A stretch of DNA of 64,000 bases from Leucoraja ocellata. Lineage: Eukaryota. The position numbers and the translations under genes are program-made. A model generated the notes under the pieces. It was not told the DNA's origin, ran no database searches, and worked only from the letters and a program-made list of their open reading frames with translations. Where the stretch lies: the NCBI GenBank assembly GCA_036785375.1, contig JAWMAR010000276.1, positions 992,001-1,056,000 on the forward strand, given 5' to 3'. Positions 10,940 to 62,844 of the stretch are shown here, one piece after another (positions within the stretch are counted from its first letter, which is position 1; each line of letters opens with the position of its first letter).

Positions 10940-13900
10940 GTGAGGCGAGGCGTGCTGACGATTACATGCAGACTCTCAGCCCCGGGCTGGTTCCCCGTCA
11001 CTGATGCCAATGGGAGACTTTGTGGGACAAGCGAGGTTTCGGGTCGGGATCCTTCGTGGAGTCAGCCGATAAAATTGGTCTCAGATTTGGTTCAAACCTG
11101 TGGCGGAAGGACTAGAGCCGGCCCTAGATTTGTCCTGTTACACATCTTTCAGTCAATTGCTCGATGTAACTTTTCTAATCTCTCGTTTCCCTCTCCCCTC
11201 TTCTTCTTGCGTTTGGCGTGCACAGCCTAAAGTTGTAGGACAACTTGTTCTATTTGATTGTGCACGCCAGACTGATGACATTCGTAGAAACAGGGAAGGT
11301 TTAATTGCAACACGCGAAGGTTGCAATCTCCAATCTCCCCCCCCCCCCCTCTGACTCTCGGGAGTCTCGACCTGAAACATCACCTATTCCTTTTCACCAG
11401 ATATGCTGTCTGACCCGCTGAGGTACTCCAGCTTTTTGTGTCTATCGTCGGTGTCAACCAGCATCTGTAGTCCCTTCCCACACATTTTGCCTAGCAAAAT
11501 ACGTGTTGACTTGTGGATCAAGCGGTTCGGGCTTTGCAGCCAGCATATCTGACAGAGGGTGCCACGAGATGTATTGATTTGTTATTATCTCAATTATACT
11601 TATGGAATCTTCTGCTCTCTTTCCTCTTTCTTAACCCTTTGGGTCACGCATCTTCATCATAAGAAGAACCAGAGTACAATGTTTTTGGGTCAGTAGGTTA
11701 TGGATTTAAATCTTACTCCACAGGCTTGAATGCCAAAATGAAGGGACACTATAGTGCAGGAACTAAAGGGGTGATGACTAGTTAGACATGTCCTGGTTGT
11801 TTGGAACAGAGAATAGTATAGCACAGGAAAATACTTCAGCCAACAATGTTTGTGCCAAACATGATGGCAAGTCAAACTCTCTGCTGCCTGCATGAGATCT
11901 GTATCCATCCATTTCCTGCATACCAATTTTCCAATCTCCTAAATGTCACTATTTTATCTGCCTGCACTATCACACCTGGGTATTCAAGGCACCCACCACT
12001 CTCAGTGTAAAAAAATACTTTCCCCTCCTCTTTTAAACTTTTCTCCTCAAAGGTAGCCCCTCTTTATTTGATGTTGATGTCACCGTCGAGTGTCTAACTA
12101 TTCCTTTCCAATCTCCACAGGAACAACTGGTGGTAGTGGAACTGTCAGGGATTATCGACCCAGATTTCCTTTTGAAGTGTAGGAATGAATGCAAAATTGT
12201 GGTAAGTGGGTGATAAAGTACTGCATGAGTTGTTTAGGCCTTCTCTGTTGCACTTAAACTAGAGGAACAGCACGTTGTATTCTTCTTGGATAGCTTGCAT
12301 CCCAACAGCATGAACATTTGAATTCTGCAATGTATAGCAATACCCCAGATGAGAGAGCAGGTGTATTTTGTCCCATGCTCCAAGGCTCCAGCTTGTGGAG
12401 TTTACTGGTCATGTCCGTTAGTGTTGTGGGGAAAAGAGATAGCATTGCTGTCATTAGTTCATTATGTCACTACTGTTGTATCAAGTAACACATGGGACAC
12501 AAAGCTAACTAGATGGATTTTATTATTTTTGTTTCTAGCTGATTTGTAGTCCTGTGACTGTTAAGTAGATTCAAGTTTTATGAGGTCTGCTCAATTGGGT
12601 TTACTTAAACAATGTCTAATTCATCACAAGCATTTAACCTTTCCTTTTTTCTCCCCAGGGTATAGATACTGAGCAGCCTATCATGCAGGTGGACAGATGT
12701 GTTTTTGCTGGAGAGTATGAAGGCCAGTATTTTACTACTTTGTGTTTCTGGGGCAGAGTGTGTGGATGTCACTGCATTGTTTGGTGGTGTGGATGAATAT
12801 GTCACATGGACCAGTTTCAGGTCCTAAATGCCAGCAAAATCCTGAGCATGATCAATAGCATTTTATGACCTTGAACACTGGGGCATCCTATCCGACGGAC
12901 TAATGGGAATAGCTTCACAATAGAGTACAGCAATCAGGTGGGTTACTGAGAAAGACTAAATGCTGCCTTACTATCACATAAGAAAGAGTTGAAGGGTGTT
13001 TTAGCTGACATCCAGCATCTGGAGAGTGTCCAAAGTGGAGCAGTTCAGCTGTGAGGATTGCCATGCATGAGTTGTTTAATAAAGAATGGAAAAACCTCAA
13101 ACAATTGCTTCAATTTCCTATTTATGCCTCTTCTGGGTGTAACACATCATCAGGATTTCTGCTTAACTTGTTTATTGTATGAAACAAGATTGTTGAAGGG
13201 AGATTAAATCATGGTAACTGCCAGGGAAAGTATGCACCAAAAAGCAAACTAAGGTTTTAATGTGTGTGTATACCCGTGTCAATTGCTGAATTGCTACTAA
13301 TTTGCACTGCCTATTTTGTTACAGATGTCCTGGGAACATGTGTGATATTTGAAGAGACTTCTGAGCCAGGTGAGTGTGACTTGTTTTAAAAACATGTTTT
13401 CCAGAGATGCTGCCTGACCCACTGAGTTACTCCAGCACTGTCATTTTTTGTATACCAGCATCTGCAGTTTCTGGGACATCATCAGGATTTAAAAAAAAAA
13501 AATTCTGCATAGGATTTGTCATTGCCAGCAAGGACACCATTGATCATTTTTTCCTACAGGCCTTTGAGAAGCCCCTTGGGTCTTTTGTTGAGGGGATGGA
13601 CAGAAAGCTTTATAAAAGAGCCAAAAGGCAAAATAACCATCAGGATGAAAAAAACGGTTTGATTTATTAAAGACTATACTTCTAATGTATTTGTATATTT
13701 CAATTGGACAAATAGACCTAATGTTATTTATCCACTTTGTATGGCGAAATATTCCAAATGCCACTCGCTCTTGAAATCTTTGGTTGTATAATGTACTACT
13801 TGTGGTGACCAATTAATGCAGAGCAAGTTACTAAGCCAGAATAGGAGCGGCTGTTGGGGGTTCAGTTTATTTTAGTTTAGAGATACAGCACGGAAACAGG

Positions 13901-27700: not shown

Positions 27701-28000
27701 ACTACCACAGAACTACCCTCTGCCACAGAGGGTAGTTGAGGCCAGTTCATTGGCTATATTTAAGAGGGAGTTAGATGTGGCCCTTGTGGCTAAGGGGATC
27801 AGGGGGTATGGAGAGAAGGCAGGTACGGGATACTGAGTTGGATGATCAGCCATGATCATATTAAATGGCGGTGCAGGCTTGAAGGGCCGAATGGCCTACT
27901 CCTGCACCTAATTTCTATGTTTCTAAGAGAACTACAAAAGGACCAACATGAGATTCAGGGTTGATGTTTTACCTTGATGCCCAGTTCTCGCGTGGATATT

Positions 28001-28052
28001 GGGGTCAAGGAAAGAGCGTTCACGTTGCGGCCCTGTTTCCACTAATCTTTCC
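28001..28052 (+). ncRNA. Predicted minimal HDV-like self-cleaving ribozyme
   Basis: P1 GGGGTC/GGCCCT (G1-U), P2 GGAAAGA/TCTTTCC, P3 GCG/TGC, L3 TTCACGT, short P4, J4/2 CTAA. Confidence 0.75.
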
Positions 28053-28156
28053 ACCACCAAGCACAAGAAGCGCAAGACAGACACCATTGCAAGCAGATGC
28101 CGAGAAGTGTGTTCAGCTCTGGCTGAACAACTTGTGTGTGGACTCGACAAAAAGAA
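28001..28156 (+). mobile_element. Mini-retroposon family B with intact HDV-like ribozyme head
   Basis: TSD gcgtggatatt (27990-28000) and gcgtgaatatt (28157-28167); A/AAG tail; homologous to 34153-34308. Confidence 0.85.
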
Positions 28157-28175
28157 GCGTGAATATTCTTCAGAC

Positions 28176-32197: not shown

Positions 32198-35100
32198 CTG
32201 CAAGAAGAAAAGGCATAACAAAAAACAAATATTAGATTGAGTATCATATCCAACATTACTGCTGAAGTCCAACAGCTCAATTCATGCAATTCTCACTTTA
32301 AAAAAAAGAAAATAACCCTTTGTTCGTGAACAGAGCAAAACAACTTCCTGAATTTGGTCAATTTCTGTTAATTCTATCTGTAAAGTAGGAGCTTTCACAA
32401 GGATGCTAAGAAAGCAAACATTTAGAGTGCTTGCTACTCAATTCTACATAATGGTTCATTCTATCCATATTTCTGTACCATTAAATTAAAATGACGCGAA
32501 GAATTAAGCAATAATTAATGATTCCTGGAATAAATCTGTCATCAATTAATTAAACAAGCCAACCCAATTTTCTAGATTTTCCCAATTGTCCCCTGAAGCA
32601 ACAAGGCATGTCTTATTTAGATGAAAAAGAGATATGGGTACTGGAGTTTCAGAACTGCCAATCAACGTGAAAAATATACATCTTCTAGATGCGCTGGGAT
32701 GCATCCTCAGTGATGTGACCTGGGGTCATCGGGTGTTTCAGGTCTCACAACATCAGACATCCTCGCCCAGGTGACCCAGCCGGGGTTTATCAGCATGCGT
32801 CCCAGCAGCAACCGCCCACGGATCTGCCATCTTAATAACTACTCTGCAGGGGTTGGGAGACTCTAGTGTGTGGAGGGACTGGACTCTATGGAGTGAGTTC
32901 TGGCCGGGCTCCTCCTGCGTCTCATCAGGTTCAAGGCCTGTGCGCTGCACCTCTTTCTCCTTCTCCGAGCATTTCATTCTTGCCTGATGGATTTTTAGGC
33001 CATGGTGGTTCATTAGGCCTTTCCGTAGCTTTATTGGGTGCCTTTCTTACGAACGACGCAGTCTGGGGTGCTAAGCCAGCCTTTCCCGGGTGCCGTCTAT
33101 CCGTGCCGTCAACTGTCTCTCCAGTAGTCTACAAGTACAAGCTGGTCTAAACTCATTTTTTTTAATCTCACTTTCCTTCCTCGTTGCTCCTTATCACCTT
33201 CCCATGTAAACTTTACAGAAACAGGTCAGCAACAAAATGAAAGAGCATTTGTTAGTGCTGATAGGGAGAGGCTTGGGTGCATAAGGGAATATCACCAAAC
33301 TTCAACTCAAAAAGCATACAACACACTTATCATGAAATGTAACGGGATATGACACTACAAGCAGGCCTATTTTCCTGCAATGTCAATTTGAGATTGGCAA
33401 TCGGGATTTCCCAGTAAAGTCCATACCTTGCAATGCTAACCTGAGACCAGCAATAAATGAGACTTTGCCAAGGAAGTTCAGATCCCAGGAACATTTTTTT
33501 TTTTAAACATGCAAACTTCTCTATACAGGTGAGAACGAAACAACCAGAAACTGTAAAGTGGATGCACATTACTTACATATTTATGAATTATGCTTTTAAA
33601 TGTACACAAAACTAATATTCATTTTCTTTGTGCCTTTCAAATGACATTGGAGGGAAGTACATTACACTGAAAGGGGCAGGGAGGGATTTTGGCAGCAGGC
33701 TTTACACAGTGACGCCGATGGAGAGAATGCAAGGAAAAATACCTCAAATAATTTAACATTTTAAATTAGCTGGGCTCAAAGCTTCACAACTGATTTCCCC
33801 CCCCCTATCATTCTGCCCACAAAGTGGAGATGGTTGTAGTGATGAGAGTTTTAACAATGAAAACACTGATGTTGTGCAACTGGCATTTGTTGGCTGCAAG
33901 GTCAGATTGGAATATGTGGCATAGCTAATAACAGTTCCTTGTGTCTACATAATAGCAACTGTACCAAGTTCCAATTCAGGATGACTGCATTTTTATTTGA
34001 GAGCATTTGGAACTCTTATTGAAACGATGTAGAAGCAAAGTTTGAATATTTCCAAGGCAGAAGTGGTTAGATATTTGATAAACAAGGGAAAAGCAGCCAC
34101 TGATATAGAAATGAGGTTGCAATCAGATTAGTGTGATCTTATTTAATGGAGCGGAGTAAAGGAAAGAGCGTTCACGTCGTGGCCCTGTTTCCACCACCCC
34201 GCACAAGAAGCAACAAGACAGACACCATTGTATGCAGATGCCGTGAAGTGTGTCCAGCTCTGGCTGAACAACTTCTAACTTTGTGTGTGGACTCAATAAG
34301 AAGACGACTTAATGGAGCACCAGGCTTCAGTGCTCAAGTAGCTTACTTTTTTTAATTGCCCCATATGAAATAAAAGCATTCAAAAGATGCGAGCCAATTA
34401 CAGAAACTTCTAGGGGGTAAAGTATCCTTTTTGATTTCAGTCCCAACAATTTATCTAATACCATTTTCTGACTAATGTGGATTCCCTTCAGTTCCTTCCT
34501 CCCACTAGACCCTCGGTCCCCTAGTATTTCTGGGAGATTGTTTGTGTCTTCCTTAGTGAAGACAGAACCAAAGTACTTGTTTAACTGGTCTGCCATTTTC
34601 TTGTTTCCCTTATACATTCACCCGTTTCTGACTGTCAGGGACCTACATTTGTCTTCACTAATCTTTTCCTCTTCACATATCTAAAGATTTGGTTTCAAAT
34701 AACACACCCAGCAAATGTTACTGAAGAACCAGCATATGCATAAATGGAAAATAATAGATCCAAAGGCAAAAGTGTAAGTAGGCTTATAAAACATGGAAAC
34801 AGGCCCTTCAGCCTACCCAATGGGGTGGGAGATTGCAAGCTTCACGTGGTCCACACTGTTTCAACGAATGCAATCAACCTGGCGTGAAGATCAAACGGAA
34901 CAAGTTGTCTTACAACTTTAGGCTGTGCGCGCCATGCGCAAGAAGAAGCCTACCAAATCCATGCTGAACATCAAACACCCACTAATTCTAACCTAACAGC
35001 AATCCCCAAATTTCCATCAACTTCCCCATCTAGACAGTAGGGTCAATTGATAGTGATCAATTAATCTACCAACCTGCAGGTCTTTGGGATGAGAGAGGAG

Positions 35101-38100
35101 ACTGAAACTCATGGGAGAAGCAGGGAGTCACAGGGAAATATACAAATACCCATCAGATAGTACCAGAAGTTAGGACTGAATCTGGGTTGCAGTAGAGTAG
35201 CTCTCTAACTGTGTCAATGTTCCATCTTTCAATAATTAGAAATGAACAATACATATTCAAATTTATATTCAACTTCATAAGGGAATAGAATGCTCACTGC
35301 CAGTACAGTTTTATATTGCAACACCAAACACACCTATAGTCTAATTACTGCCAATGTGCATCAGGATTGGTGAAATAAAGTGGTACTTCAGCCAATGAAG
35401 CTCACCTGTTTTATTTACTGAACGTATCTTAAACTTGGTTATCCTGAAATGTGGACTATATGGAGGCTCAATTAGATGTCCAGTCTGAGGATACGAGATT
35501 GTTGTGAGCAAGTGATCATTTCCTGCAGCCTTCATCATCTTCTTTATCTGAGAGAAAAAAGCAAACAGGTTTTAACCCACGAATACCTCCAGCCAAGAAC
35601 CACAAAATCTCACATGCATTTTGGACATTATGCATTTACCTCATCAGCAGATTCAGCTGCAGGGCAGTTTTGATCATCTTCACCATAGATAATCATTAAG
35701 GGGCATCTGATTTTATCAACCTTTCAATGAAAGATAAGAATGTATGTTGTAAAGAATTAACAACAGTTAGTTGTCTGCATGAAATTATCTAAACTAAAAC
35801 ATAGAAATAAATCGACAAATAGCCATTTGCCATTATTTTAACAGAATTTTCTCTATATTAGCCTTCCTATAAAGAAGCTATTGGAATTTAAACATTTGAA
35901 TTACAAATACAATTGCCGCACTAAAATATGGCACATTAATAAAATACAATCTATTGACATCACCCCATCCAAAGGAGCACTCCCCTTCAACATCCATGAC
36001 CTGCCTGATTTTATGGTAAAACCTAATTTTATGGTAAGGTTTTTATGGTACACTGCTAACATATTATTCCCGTAGTTAATAAAATAATTTACCGGCACAA
36101 TTAACTTTGAAACATTCGTGAATGGAAGGGAAAGGTACTTCCATATCATAACACCGTCTTCTGTAAACCTAATTTTACTTGTGGCTCTAGGTGAAAAGGC
36201 AGAGAAAAGAGAAAGCAGACAAGTTAATAAAGCCCAAAATAATATTTTATTCTGATTGTTAAATCCATTAATCCTTTGTTTATTTAAATTAATATACAGT
36301 GGCTTGCAAAAGTATTCATACCCCTTGAACCTTTCCACATTTTGTCACGTTACAACCACAAACATAAATGTGTTTTATTGGGATTTTATGTGATAGACCA
36401 ACACAAAGTGGCGTATAATTGTGAAGTGGAAGGAAAATGATACATGGTTTTCAAATTTTTTTACAAATAAAAAACTGAAATGTGTGGCGTGCAAAAGTAT
36501 TCAGCCCCCTTTACTCTGATACCCCTAAATAAAATCCAGTGCAACCAATTGCCTTCAGAAGTCACCTAATTAGTAAATAGAGTCCACTTGTGTGTAATCT
36601 AATCTCAGTATAAATACAGCTGTTCTGTGAAGGCCTCAGAGGTTTGTTAGAGAACATTAGTGAACAAACAGCATCATGAAGCCCAAGGAACACATCAGAC
36701 AGGTCAGGGATAAAGTTGTGGAGAAGTTTAAAGCAGGGTTAGGTTATAAAAAAATATCCCAAGCTTTGAACATCTCACGGAGCACTGTTCAATCCATTAG
36801 CTGAAAATGGAAAGAGTATGACACAACATCAAACCTACCAAGCAATGGCCGTCCACCTAAACTGACAGGCCGGGCAAGGAGAGCATTGATCAGAGAAGCA
36901 GCCAAGAGGCCCATGGTAACTCTGGAGGAGCTGCAGAGATCCACAGCTCAGGTGGGATAATCTGTCCACAGGACAACTATTAGTCGTGCACTCCACAAAT
37001 CGGGCCTTTATTGAAGAGTGGCAAGAAGAAAGCCATTGTTGAAAAAAAGCCATAAGAAGTCCCGTTTGCAGTTTGCCACAAGCCATGTGGGGGACACAGC
37101 AAACATGTGGAGGAAGGTGATCTGGTCAGATGAGACCAAAATTGAAGTTTTTGGCCTAAATGCAAAACGCTATGTGTGGCGGAAAACTAACACTGCACAT
37201 CACCCTGAACACACCATCCCCACTGTGAAACATGGTGGTGGCAGCATCATGCTAGTCAGAATTGATGGGAAGATGGATGGAGCCAAATACAGGGCAATCT
37301 TGGAAGAAAACCTGTTAAGAGTCTGCAAAAGACTTGAGACTGGGGCAGAGGTTCACCTTCCAGCAGGACAACGACCCTAAACATACAGCCAGAGCTACAA
37401 TGGAATGGTTTAGATCAAAGCATATTCATGTGTTAGAATGGCCCAGTCAAAGTCCAGACCTAAATCCAATTGAGAATCTCTGGCAAGACTTAAATTGCTG
37501 TTCACAGACGCTCTCCATCCAATTTGACTGAGCTTGAGCTATTTTGCAAAGAAGAATGGGCAAAAATTTAAGTCTCTAGATGTGCAAAGCTGGTAGAGAC
37601 ATACCCCAAAAGACTTACAGCTGTAATTGCAGCGATGGGTGGTTCTACAAAGTATTGACTCGGGGGGGCTGAATACTTTTGCACGCCACACTTTTCTGTT
37701 TTTTATTTGTAAAAGAATTTGAAAACCATGTATCATTTTCCTTCCACTTCATAATTATGCACCACTTTGTGTTGGTCTATCACATAAAATCCCAATAAAA
37801 TACATTTACGTTTGTGGTTGTAACGTGACAAAATGTGGAAAAGTTCAAGGGGTATGAATACTTTTGCAAGCCACTGTAGGTTTACATAACCTACCAATTC
37901 GCATTTGTAAACTGTCTCGATTTGAAATATTTTTTCAGAAGGCAACCAATTCTTCCTGATATTTAAATACACCACACGCATCATGGTCTTCGCCCTCAGG
38001 AGGGAATACCCATTGAAGAACAATTATACATAAAAGGAAAATTCCAATATCAACTTACTCATTCGCATCTTCAATTAAATCAGCATTTCCATTCCAGATA

Positions 38101-61974: not shown

Positions 61975-62492
61975 ATGATTAATTTGCAGATTAACTTTTG
62001 GGAATCCTGCACCAGCACTCTCAAGTCCCTTTGCACCTTCGATTCCTGGATTCTGTCCCCATTTAAAAAATAGTCTACGCCTTTATTCCTACTACCAAAA
62101 TGCACACCTGCACAATTTGCTACACTATATGCCATCTGCCACTTCTCTGCCCACTCTACCAACCTGTCCAAGTCTTTCTGCAGAGTCCCTGCTTTCTCCA
62201 ACCTACCTGCCTCTTCACCTATTTTGGTATCATCCGTAAACCTGGCCACAAAGCCTTCAATCATCCTAATCATTAATATACATCATGAAGAGTAATGGCC
62301 TCAGCATCGACCCCTGCAGAACTCCACCAGTCACTGGCGGCCAACCAGAAAAAGCCCCCTTTATTGCCAGTCTTTGCCTTTTGCCATCCAGCCAACCTGC
62401 AGGCCATACTAGTATCTGCCCTTTGATACCATGGGCTCTCATCTTCCTTAGCAGTTTAACGTGTGGCACTTTATCAAAAGCTTTCTGAAAAT
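61975..62492 (-). mobile_element. CR1 RT fragment
   Basis: VTGGVLQGSMLRPLLFMMYIND and ARFTDDTKIG motifs. Confidence 0.88.
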
Positions 62493-62844
62493 GTAGTTAA
62501 GCAACATATACTGATGGTACTCAAGGTGATATGGTTCCTAGGAACTGAGATGTTTGAGGGGCAGCAGGATGGTGATTGGGTCTTGTCATTGAGACCGGGG
62601 AGCAAGATGTTTATGCAGATGGGCAGGATCCCCACTATCATCTTCTGAACATGTGTTTGAGAGAATGCTCACATTATTTGCACAATAGCAAGTGCCAACA
62701 ACAGCTAAACGAATCACCACCTACATAAGTTTCCATCAACCTGGCCTCCAAACAGATCATATAATTGAAGACCAATTTCTGCTTCACCTATTATATGTCC
62801 TCTCGAGGTTATGATGGGATTCCATTCTTAAGAATCTGAGCAAG

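Follow-up and report, generated by a model that had tools for sequence, protein, structure and literature searches.

A bipartite retroposon with a predicted HDV-like ribozyme head, derived from the two ends of a Vingi-like LINE

The window, the whole 64,000-nt stretch of Leucoraja ocellata DNA that was analyzed, carries at 34822-34948 a short element that is almost certainly a retroposon copy, a bipartite and non-autonomous derivative of a LINE. The family to which it belongs is referred to as family A. The features of this copy are listed below, followed by a second family-A copy and by a copy of family B from the same window.

34810-34821, forward strand: left target-site duplication (TSD), 12 bp, AGCCTACCCAAT, 11/12 identical to the right TSD copy
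34822-34875, forward strand: minimal HDV-like ribozyme head (LINE nt 1-54); the same head is found on full-length LINE copies
34822-28/34851-57, forward strand: ribozyme P1, GGGGUGG/CCACACU, with one mismatch, G3-A34
34831-37/34869-75, forward strand: ribozyme P2, GAUUGCA/UGCAAUC, 7/7 paired
34838-40/34848-50, forward strand: ribozyme P3, AGC/GGU, with a G18-G28 mismatch
34841-47, forward strand: ribozyme L3, UUCACGU
34865, forward strand: presumed catalytic C (C44), first in J4/2
34839 and 34855, forward strand: private mismatches of the ribozyme head
34876-34891, forward strand: remaining part derived from the LINE 5′ UTR, to about LINE nt 80, by comparison with the LINE
34880-34886, forward strand: 5′ arm of the end-to-end duplex, from the LINE 5′ UTR; a 9-nt deletion has shortened it here
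34892-34904, forward strand: family-A-specific linker, partly duplicating the preceding bases and absent from the LINE 5′ and 3′ ends
34902-34918, forward strand: inner hairpin AAGTTGT-CTT-ACAACTT, spanning the junction; from the MFE fold, and absent from the LINE
34905-34939, forward strand: LINE 3′ end (last ORF codons, stop and 17-nt 3′ UTR), by match to LINE 3′ ends
34924-34934, forward strand: 3′ arm of the end-to-end duplex, within the LINE 3′ end
34940-34948, forward strand: (AAG)3 tail
34947-34958, forward strand: right target-site duplication, AGCCTACCAAAT
11199-11337, reverse strand: second, more decayed family-A copy, with a broken ribozyme and a whole 11-bp outer stem
28001-28157, forward strand: family B, a second ribozyme-headed bipartite family (TSD 27990-28000 / 28157-28167; Rfam CPEB3 30.4 bits)

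As the sequence-only reading had proposed, the copy at 34822 is enclosed by a 12-bp TSD; AG is common to the end of the tail (34948) and the start of the right TSD (34947). The HDV-like head described in that reading was likewise present, with its G-A mismatch in P1 and its G-G mismatch in P3. G1-U36, P2, L3 and C44 were unbroken, GU was present, and P4 was replaced by a 5-nt loop. The MFE fold contained both elements that had been predicted for the 3′ half, namely the inner hairpin and an outer stem, here of 7 bp, and did not contain the pseudoknot; the copy alone folded no better than shuffled sequences (z = 0.88). An Rfam search of the window gave no match to this copy at E ≤ 1. Both head mismatches were private, occurring in 1 of 70 family-A copies, and the copy is therefore probably dead. 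Judged from its sequence, it is likely to be an inactive, neutral relic and is predicted not to cleave.

In contigs of four public runs, C was dominant at 34855 and loose ends piled up at 34821 and 34948. In one run, X8, a contig joint at high word depth connected 34886, where the 5′ arm stops, with G1 at 34822, as would be produced by heads in tandem or by a circular form in the organism concerned. The 34822 locus is duplicated ∼333 kb away on the same contig (L002; 98.9% over 3.1 kb). Many loci occur in such duplicate pairs, which would be either segmental duplicates or uncollapsed haplotypes.

The second family-A copy, at 11.3 kb, has the perfect 10-bp outer stem reported for it, or 11 bp when the flanking T-A is counted. 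The accompanying claim that P3 is corrected (ACC) in this copy did not hold: the P3 strand is ACC but its partner is GTT, so that a C-T mismatch stays and one mismatch has been traded for another. Correction of P3 was seen in the family majority. The 11.3-kb copy is further damaged by two mismatches in P2, by 10 nt inserted into P1 and by a change in L3. Elsewhere in the window, a 226-nt inverted repeat (36284-36509 and 37664-37889; 94% complementary, 1.15 kb apart) probably represents the ends of a DNA transposon. An RT fragment lies at 62269-62505, and short interspersed repeats of the D1/D2/D5 and D17 families, which have no relation to family A, are also abundant.

The family-A element is ∼134 nt long. 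Its 32-nt 3′ end had 2,473 exact matches in the 3.44 Gb of genome searched, a lower bound on copy number, with none for the reversed control, and BLAST of the genome gave 1,296 family-A candidates. From the loci, 83 head-to-tail copies were taken and 13 flank duplicates were dropped, leaving 70; this set is biased, in that 30 loci were the best BLAST matches and the others were selected by an exact or near-exact motif. Of these 70 independent copies, 58 have a TSD, against 1 of 70 with swapped flanks, and the modal TSD length is 11-12 bp. The match and TSD counts exceed chance, and the proposal of a retroposon with an HDV-like head is supported. The TSD ended exactly at G1 in 26 of the 58 TSD-bearing copies and no more than 1 nt from G1 in 45. 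When selection was by tail only, 26 of 30 loci started at nt 1-4. The base preceding G1 was T in 35 of 63 copies, a preference of either the target or the cleavage site. No ORF was found in family A, nor was an A or B box on either strand (searched as simple box patterns). The common linker and the 11-12-bp TSDs show that family A was amplified as a unit. Among inserted copies, the ribozyme and the rest of the element decayed equally (0.048 vs 0.044), which suggests that no selection acts on them.

LINE 3′ ends were located by means of a zinc-knuckle motif. The first such scan yielded three other LINE families, none of which matched family A in 30 loci. A partner LINE sharing the tail, the finding of which had been preset as a test, was found in LINE V4: 28 of 30 V4 loci matched the last 30-46 nt of family A at 80-100%. 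In an upstream walk, 5 of 30 long V4 loci opened with the family-A head in the sense strand, and one head-to-tail V4 copy was flanked by its own TSD. V4 is a ∼3.1-kb element with a single ORF, in which Pfam detected APE (37 and 31 bits) and RT (92.5 bits) domains. No RNase H domain was found in five fragments or in 120 listed homologues; the homologues are mostly ∼1,000 aa when complete. In PMC13708176, Vingi is described as compact, with a single ORF that has APE and RT and no RNase H. V4 is accordingly termed Vingi-like, a putative assignment in which the domain layout fits this description and none of the listed homologues is named Vingi. The genome contains about eight Vingi-like LINE families, most of them with an (AAG)n tail after NCG.

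Comparison with V4 resolved family A into V4 nt 1-80, a linker of ∼13 nt and the last ∼45 nt of the LINE, with 84-96% identity between LINE nt 1-80 and the family-A head. The majority head is fully paired in P1 (7/7, with G1-U as first pair), P2 (7/7) and P3 (3/3), in nested order, and the family consensus thus keeps the P1/P3 pairing, which had also been preset as a test. The core was fully paired in 30 of 70 copies, C44 was retained in nearly all, and L3 UUCACGU with the following GU was identical to the Rfam CPEB3 consensus, the G for P1.1 being conserved as well. Rfam gave no match for family-A heads, including four family-A/V4 loci, and none at the gathering score for 16 metagenome loci. 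The heads of sister LINEs reached 35.5-61.2 bits on the Rfam HDV-like model (CPEB3, cut-off 35). Sister families with a whole 5′ end begin with HDV-like heads whose stems are of different sequence; across at least five families P1, P2 and P3 show covariation, with L3 and the J4/2 C unchanged. A strict descriptor scan recovered three of the five known heads and, among 27 metagenome loci, one; the remaining distant heads were identified by BLAST or by eye. From these comparisons, the family-A ribozyme is very probably active, with self-cleavage predicted before G1.

On the mammalian CPEB3 model (cut-off 35), the heads of full-length LINEs of the sister family d (L328:165-237 and L329:165-237) scored 61.2 and 59.2 bits. 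The family-d head agrees with the CPEB3 consensus at about 34 of its first 41 positions, and the stem differences preserve pairing. Descent of the mammalian CPEB3 ribozyme from a Vingi head is a tentative reading of this likeness, which may otherwise have come about through convergence.

The outer stem of family A pairs LINE 5′ UTR nt ∼59-69 with the 3′ UTR, sequences that lie 3 kb apart in the LINE. The 5′ arm of the inner hairpin lies across the linker and junction, and the LINE 3′ end holds the 3′ arms only; consequently there is no common 3′ hairpin, and the suggestion that this hairpin is the RT-recognition stem-loop of the LINE is not supported. A LINE with both the same 3′ hairpin and the (AAG)n tail had been sought, and V4 supplied the tail (in the 28 loci given above) and not the hairpin. 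By sequence comparison, then, the outer stem is a predicted duplex between the 5′ and 3′ UTRs and the inner hairpin is confined to the short element. The oldest subfamily, A0, retains the variants of the LINE. Between A0 and A1/A2 there are three subfamily-diagnostic changes, one of them a CpG transition, each of which gains one pair; later family-A subfamilies strengthened the duplex. The folding energy of the 3′ half is −14.7 kcal/mol in A0 compared with −23.9 and −23.6 kcal/mol in A1 and A2.

End-to-end pairing was evaluated against shuffled sequences in V4 and in sister families obtained by an APE motif scan. A first test with 30-nt windows gave p values of 0.26 for V1 (one copy pair) and 0.25 for the 34822 copy; the windows of 22 and 35/45 nt were picked after sequence inspection. 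The V4 duplex (p 0.002 vs 400 shuffles) consists of 8 bp around the palindrome GTGCAC, which is easily paired. Family d has a 9-bp duplex (p 0.002), and 11 of 14 V1 pairings gave p ≤ 0.05. Family B, for which 17 further copies were compared, has its 3′ ∼70 nt in common with LINE V2 (83%), and all three pairings gave p ≤ 0.007, computed with the 5′ arm of the short element, the 5′ end of LINE V2 not having been found. Most family B copies are missing one base that, in the LINE, is bulged out of the end-to-end duplex. V6, the stop codon of which lies at its (TAAA)n tail, carries a ribozyme yet shows no duplex (p 0.77), and pairing is thus not required throughout the group. Among 80 metagenome loci were two further, distant families with both ends. 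In one, the duplex extends to ∼30 bp, with p ≤ 0.008 in 4 of 5 copies at 35/45 nt; at 22 nt, p was < 0.05 in two of the five and three failed. The other (L353) gave p values of 0.018 and 0.002.

A duplex was thus present in 5 of 6 Vingi-like LINE families, plus family B, in sequences unrelated between families. The geometry was maintained in these unrelated sequences: the 5′ arm starts 3-5 nt downstream of P2, and 4-5 nt separate the end of the 3′ arm from the tail. The cognate 5′/3′ pair was best in 4 of 5 rows of a cross-family comparison, and windows in the LINE body whose pairing with the 5′ arm was no weaker than that of the 3′ end made up 0.65% (V4), 1.7% (family d) and 7.6% (V1). Taken as comparative evidence, these data tip the balance slightly towards a functional role for end-pairing.

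The 5′ junctions of V4 were surveyed from 327 exact V4 3′ matches, of which the first 90 listed were used and 14 duplicates and one without a visible junction were dropped, leaving 75. An inverted segment detectable by BLAST was present at 12 of these 75 junctions, starting at nt 70, 76, 76, 78, 79, 80, 85, 87, 103, 303, 468 and 1220. Eight of the 12 starts fall at nt 70-87, adjoining the duplex (∼5e-13 against a uniform distribution, for an 18-nt window chosen post hoc). A short-match search over the whole LINE found 17 of 74 inverted, mostly from nt 1-87, compared with 1 sense and 2 far-flank controls. Inversions that extend beyond nt 80 match the LINE UTR and not the family-A linker. L132/L276 was rejected as a fixed-site inversion, its inverted part extending to nt 468. 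Composites with an inverted head were enclosed by a TSD in 7 of 13 cases, compared with 3 of 156 with swapped flanks, and in five TSD-flanked composites the TSD overlapped the RNA match by 2-11 nt. A TSD around the composite together with this overlap matches the twin-priming signature of L1. Independent head-tail deletion junctions were found at nt 75 (L253), ∼80 (family A), ∼91 (L209-211) and 96 (L214). Long or head inversions were also seen in other Vingi-like families and a metagenome record (L335, L340/L341, L285, L113, L066/L067 and L368).

A bipartite derivative of a Vingi-like LINE that employs ribozyme release and end-pairing is, overall, the likely explanation of these data. Element RNA would come either from a promoter in the head or from host transcripts that read through the copy, and the ribozyme would cut before G1 to give RNA with an exact 5′ end, as in L1Tc/NARTc and R2 SIDEs. 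By the same kind of analogy, the APE-RT protein of the LINE would bind the common 3′ end and insert the RNA in trans by target-primed reverse transcription. Less certainly, the bases directly after the ribozyme may pair with those ending 5 nt before the tail and so form an RNA loop, which would place the 5′ end at the insertion site and aid 5′ joining. Early melting of the duplex by the RT could then leave nt ∼60-90 unpaired next to the second nick. As a side effect, the second target strand could prime at nt ∼70-87, giving fixed-site 5′ inversions, or the RT could jump across the loop, giving the head-tail deletions that founded family A. Whether Vingi-like LINEs generally combine an HDV-like head with an RNA loop that holds the 5′ end at the target, explaining both fixed-site twin priming and recurrent head-plus-tail elements, is in our estimate an even question.

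The part assigned to the loop has a rival in which the duplex only stabilizes or compacts the RNA and the site of inversion or deletion is set by the A-rich single-stranded nt 66-80 beside ribozyme-bound protein. Inverted heads numbered 0 in the 19 loci of V1, in which the duplex is present, and 1 in the 14 loci of V6, which lacks it; these counts argue against a general link between duplex and inversion and favor the rival, as does the observation that TSDs frequently end in AT or CAT, matching the A-rich stretch. Generic stability, however, does not predict fixed arm positions near P2 and the tail in unrelated families, and we regard this alternative as possible but rather unlikely. Alternatively, transcription from an internal Pol II promoter with its start at +1, comparable to Pr77 of L1Tc, could produce the exact 5′ end, and the ribozyme fold would be a weak or vestigial passenger. 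In L1Tc and NARTc, one 77-nt segment does serve both as promoter and as ribozyme (PMC3383444), but promoter and ribozyme roles can coexist, and the covariation of P1, P2 and P3 in at least five families, the constant L3 and J4/2 C, and the presence of C44 in nearly all copies make a passenger fold improbable.

Two further alternatives concern the short element itself. An ordinary Pol III SINE whose head merely resembles a ribozyme would be compatible with the lack of an Rfam match for the family-A head; it is contradicted by the identity of this head with the LINE's own 5′ end and by the lack of an A or B box on either strand, and is extremely improbable. That the 34822 copy is a functional, exapted ribozyme at its locus might be argued from its whole G1-U36, P2, L3 and C44 and from a contig of another organism that spans the 3′ junction, such that the insertion may be old. 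The private mismatches in P1 and in the middle of the 3-bp P3, the 9-nt deletion and other changes weigh against this possibility and leave it very little probability.

The interest of this system lies in family A and its partner LINE, the single copy in the window being ordinary. Joining of the 5′ end is poorly understood in non-LTR elements, and PMC5786205 describes it as an open question why head-plus-tail derivatives arise in only a few clades. With an end-to-end duplex that covaries and leaves a genomic trace, both problems can be tested on a template of 134 nt. Gene-insertion platforms, in which truncation is a problem, already use donor RNAs flanked by Vingi UTRs (PMC13708176), and a ribozyme plus paired-end rule would bear on the design of such templates. 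In the papers searched, no account of ribozymes, end-pairing or fixed-site inversions in Vingi elements turned up, and an earlier description is possible.

HDV-like heads are known, from the text available of PMC6765202, for some LINEs and SINEs, and one Vingi fossil is recorded in human (PMC5753468, in part). Like the minimal HDV-like ribozymes theta and drz-Mtgn, the family-A head has no P4 and has C first in J4/2 (PMC10879173, in the section available), and it shares L3 UUCACGU plus GU with the Rfam consensus of the mammalian CPEB3 ribozyme. Unlike these, it is a retroposon head in thousands of copies and is neither tRNA-linked nor single-copy intronic. The V4 inversions resemble L1 twin-priming inversions in having an inverted 5′ part inside the TSD and microhomology between primer and RNA (PMC4245944, in the part available). 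In the same portion of that source inversions are found almost only with L1, whereas those of V4 arise in a Vingi-like LINE, concentrate at a single position beside the ribozyme and leave out 2-2.9 kb.

RTE, Ingi, Vingi and R2 all have known bipartite non-autonomous derivatives (PMC5786205), and family A belongs to this known kind. Vingi-1_EE of hedgehog, an internally deleted Vingi, similarly consists of the 5′ and 3′ ends of its LINE only (same source). The R2 SIDEs of Drosophila likewise combine an HDV-like ribozyme with a 3′ end and are not Pol III elements; they depend on co-transcription and self-cleavage and, unlike family A, are rDNA-specific, ∼500 nt long and few in copy number, with an RLE-type partner (PMC3414825, in the portion available). 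Compared with NARTc/RIME of trypanosomes, the partners of which are L1Tc/ingi, family A is half as long (134 vs 263 nt), has almost no unrelated middle, an animal host and an (AAG)n tail, and its partner lacks RNase H; end-to-end pairing is unmentioned for NARTc/RIME in the available part of PMC3383444. In that same text, NARTc/RIME nonetheless share with family A the first ∼77-80 nt of the LINE, with an HDV-like ribozyme cutting before +1, the last ∼30-45 nt of the LINE and a TSD of 11-12 nt.
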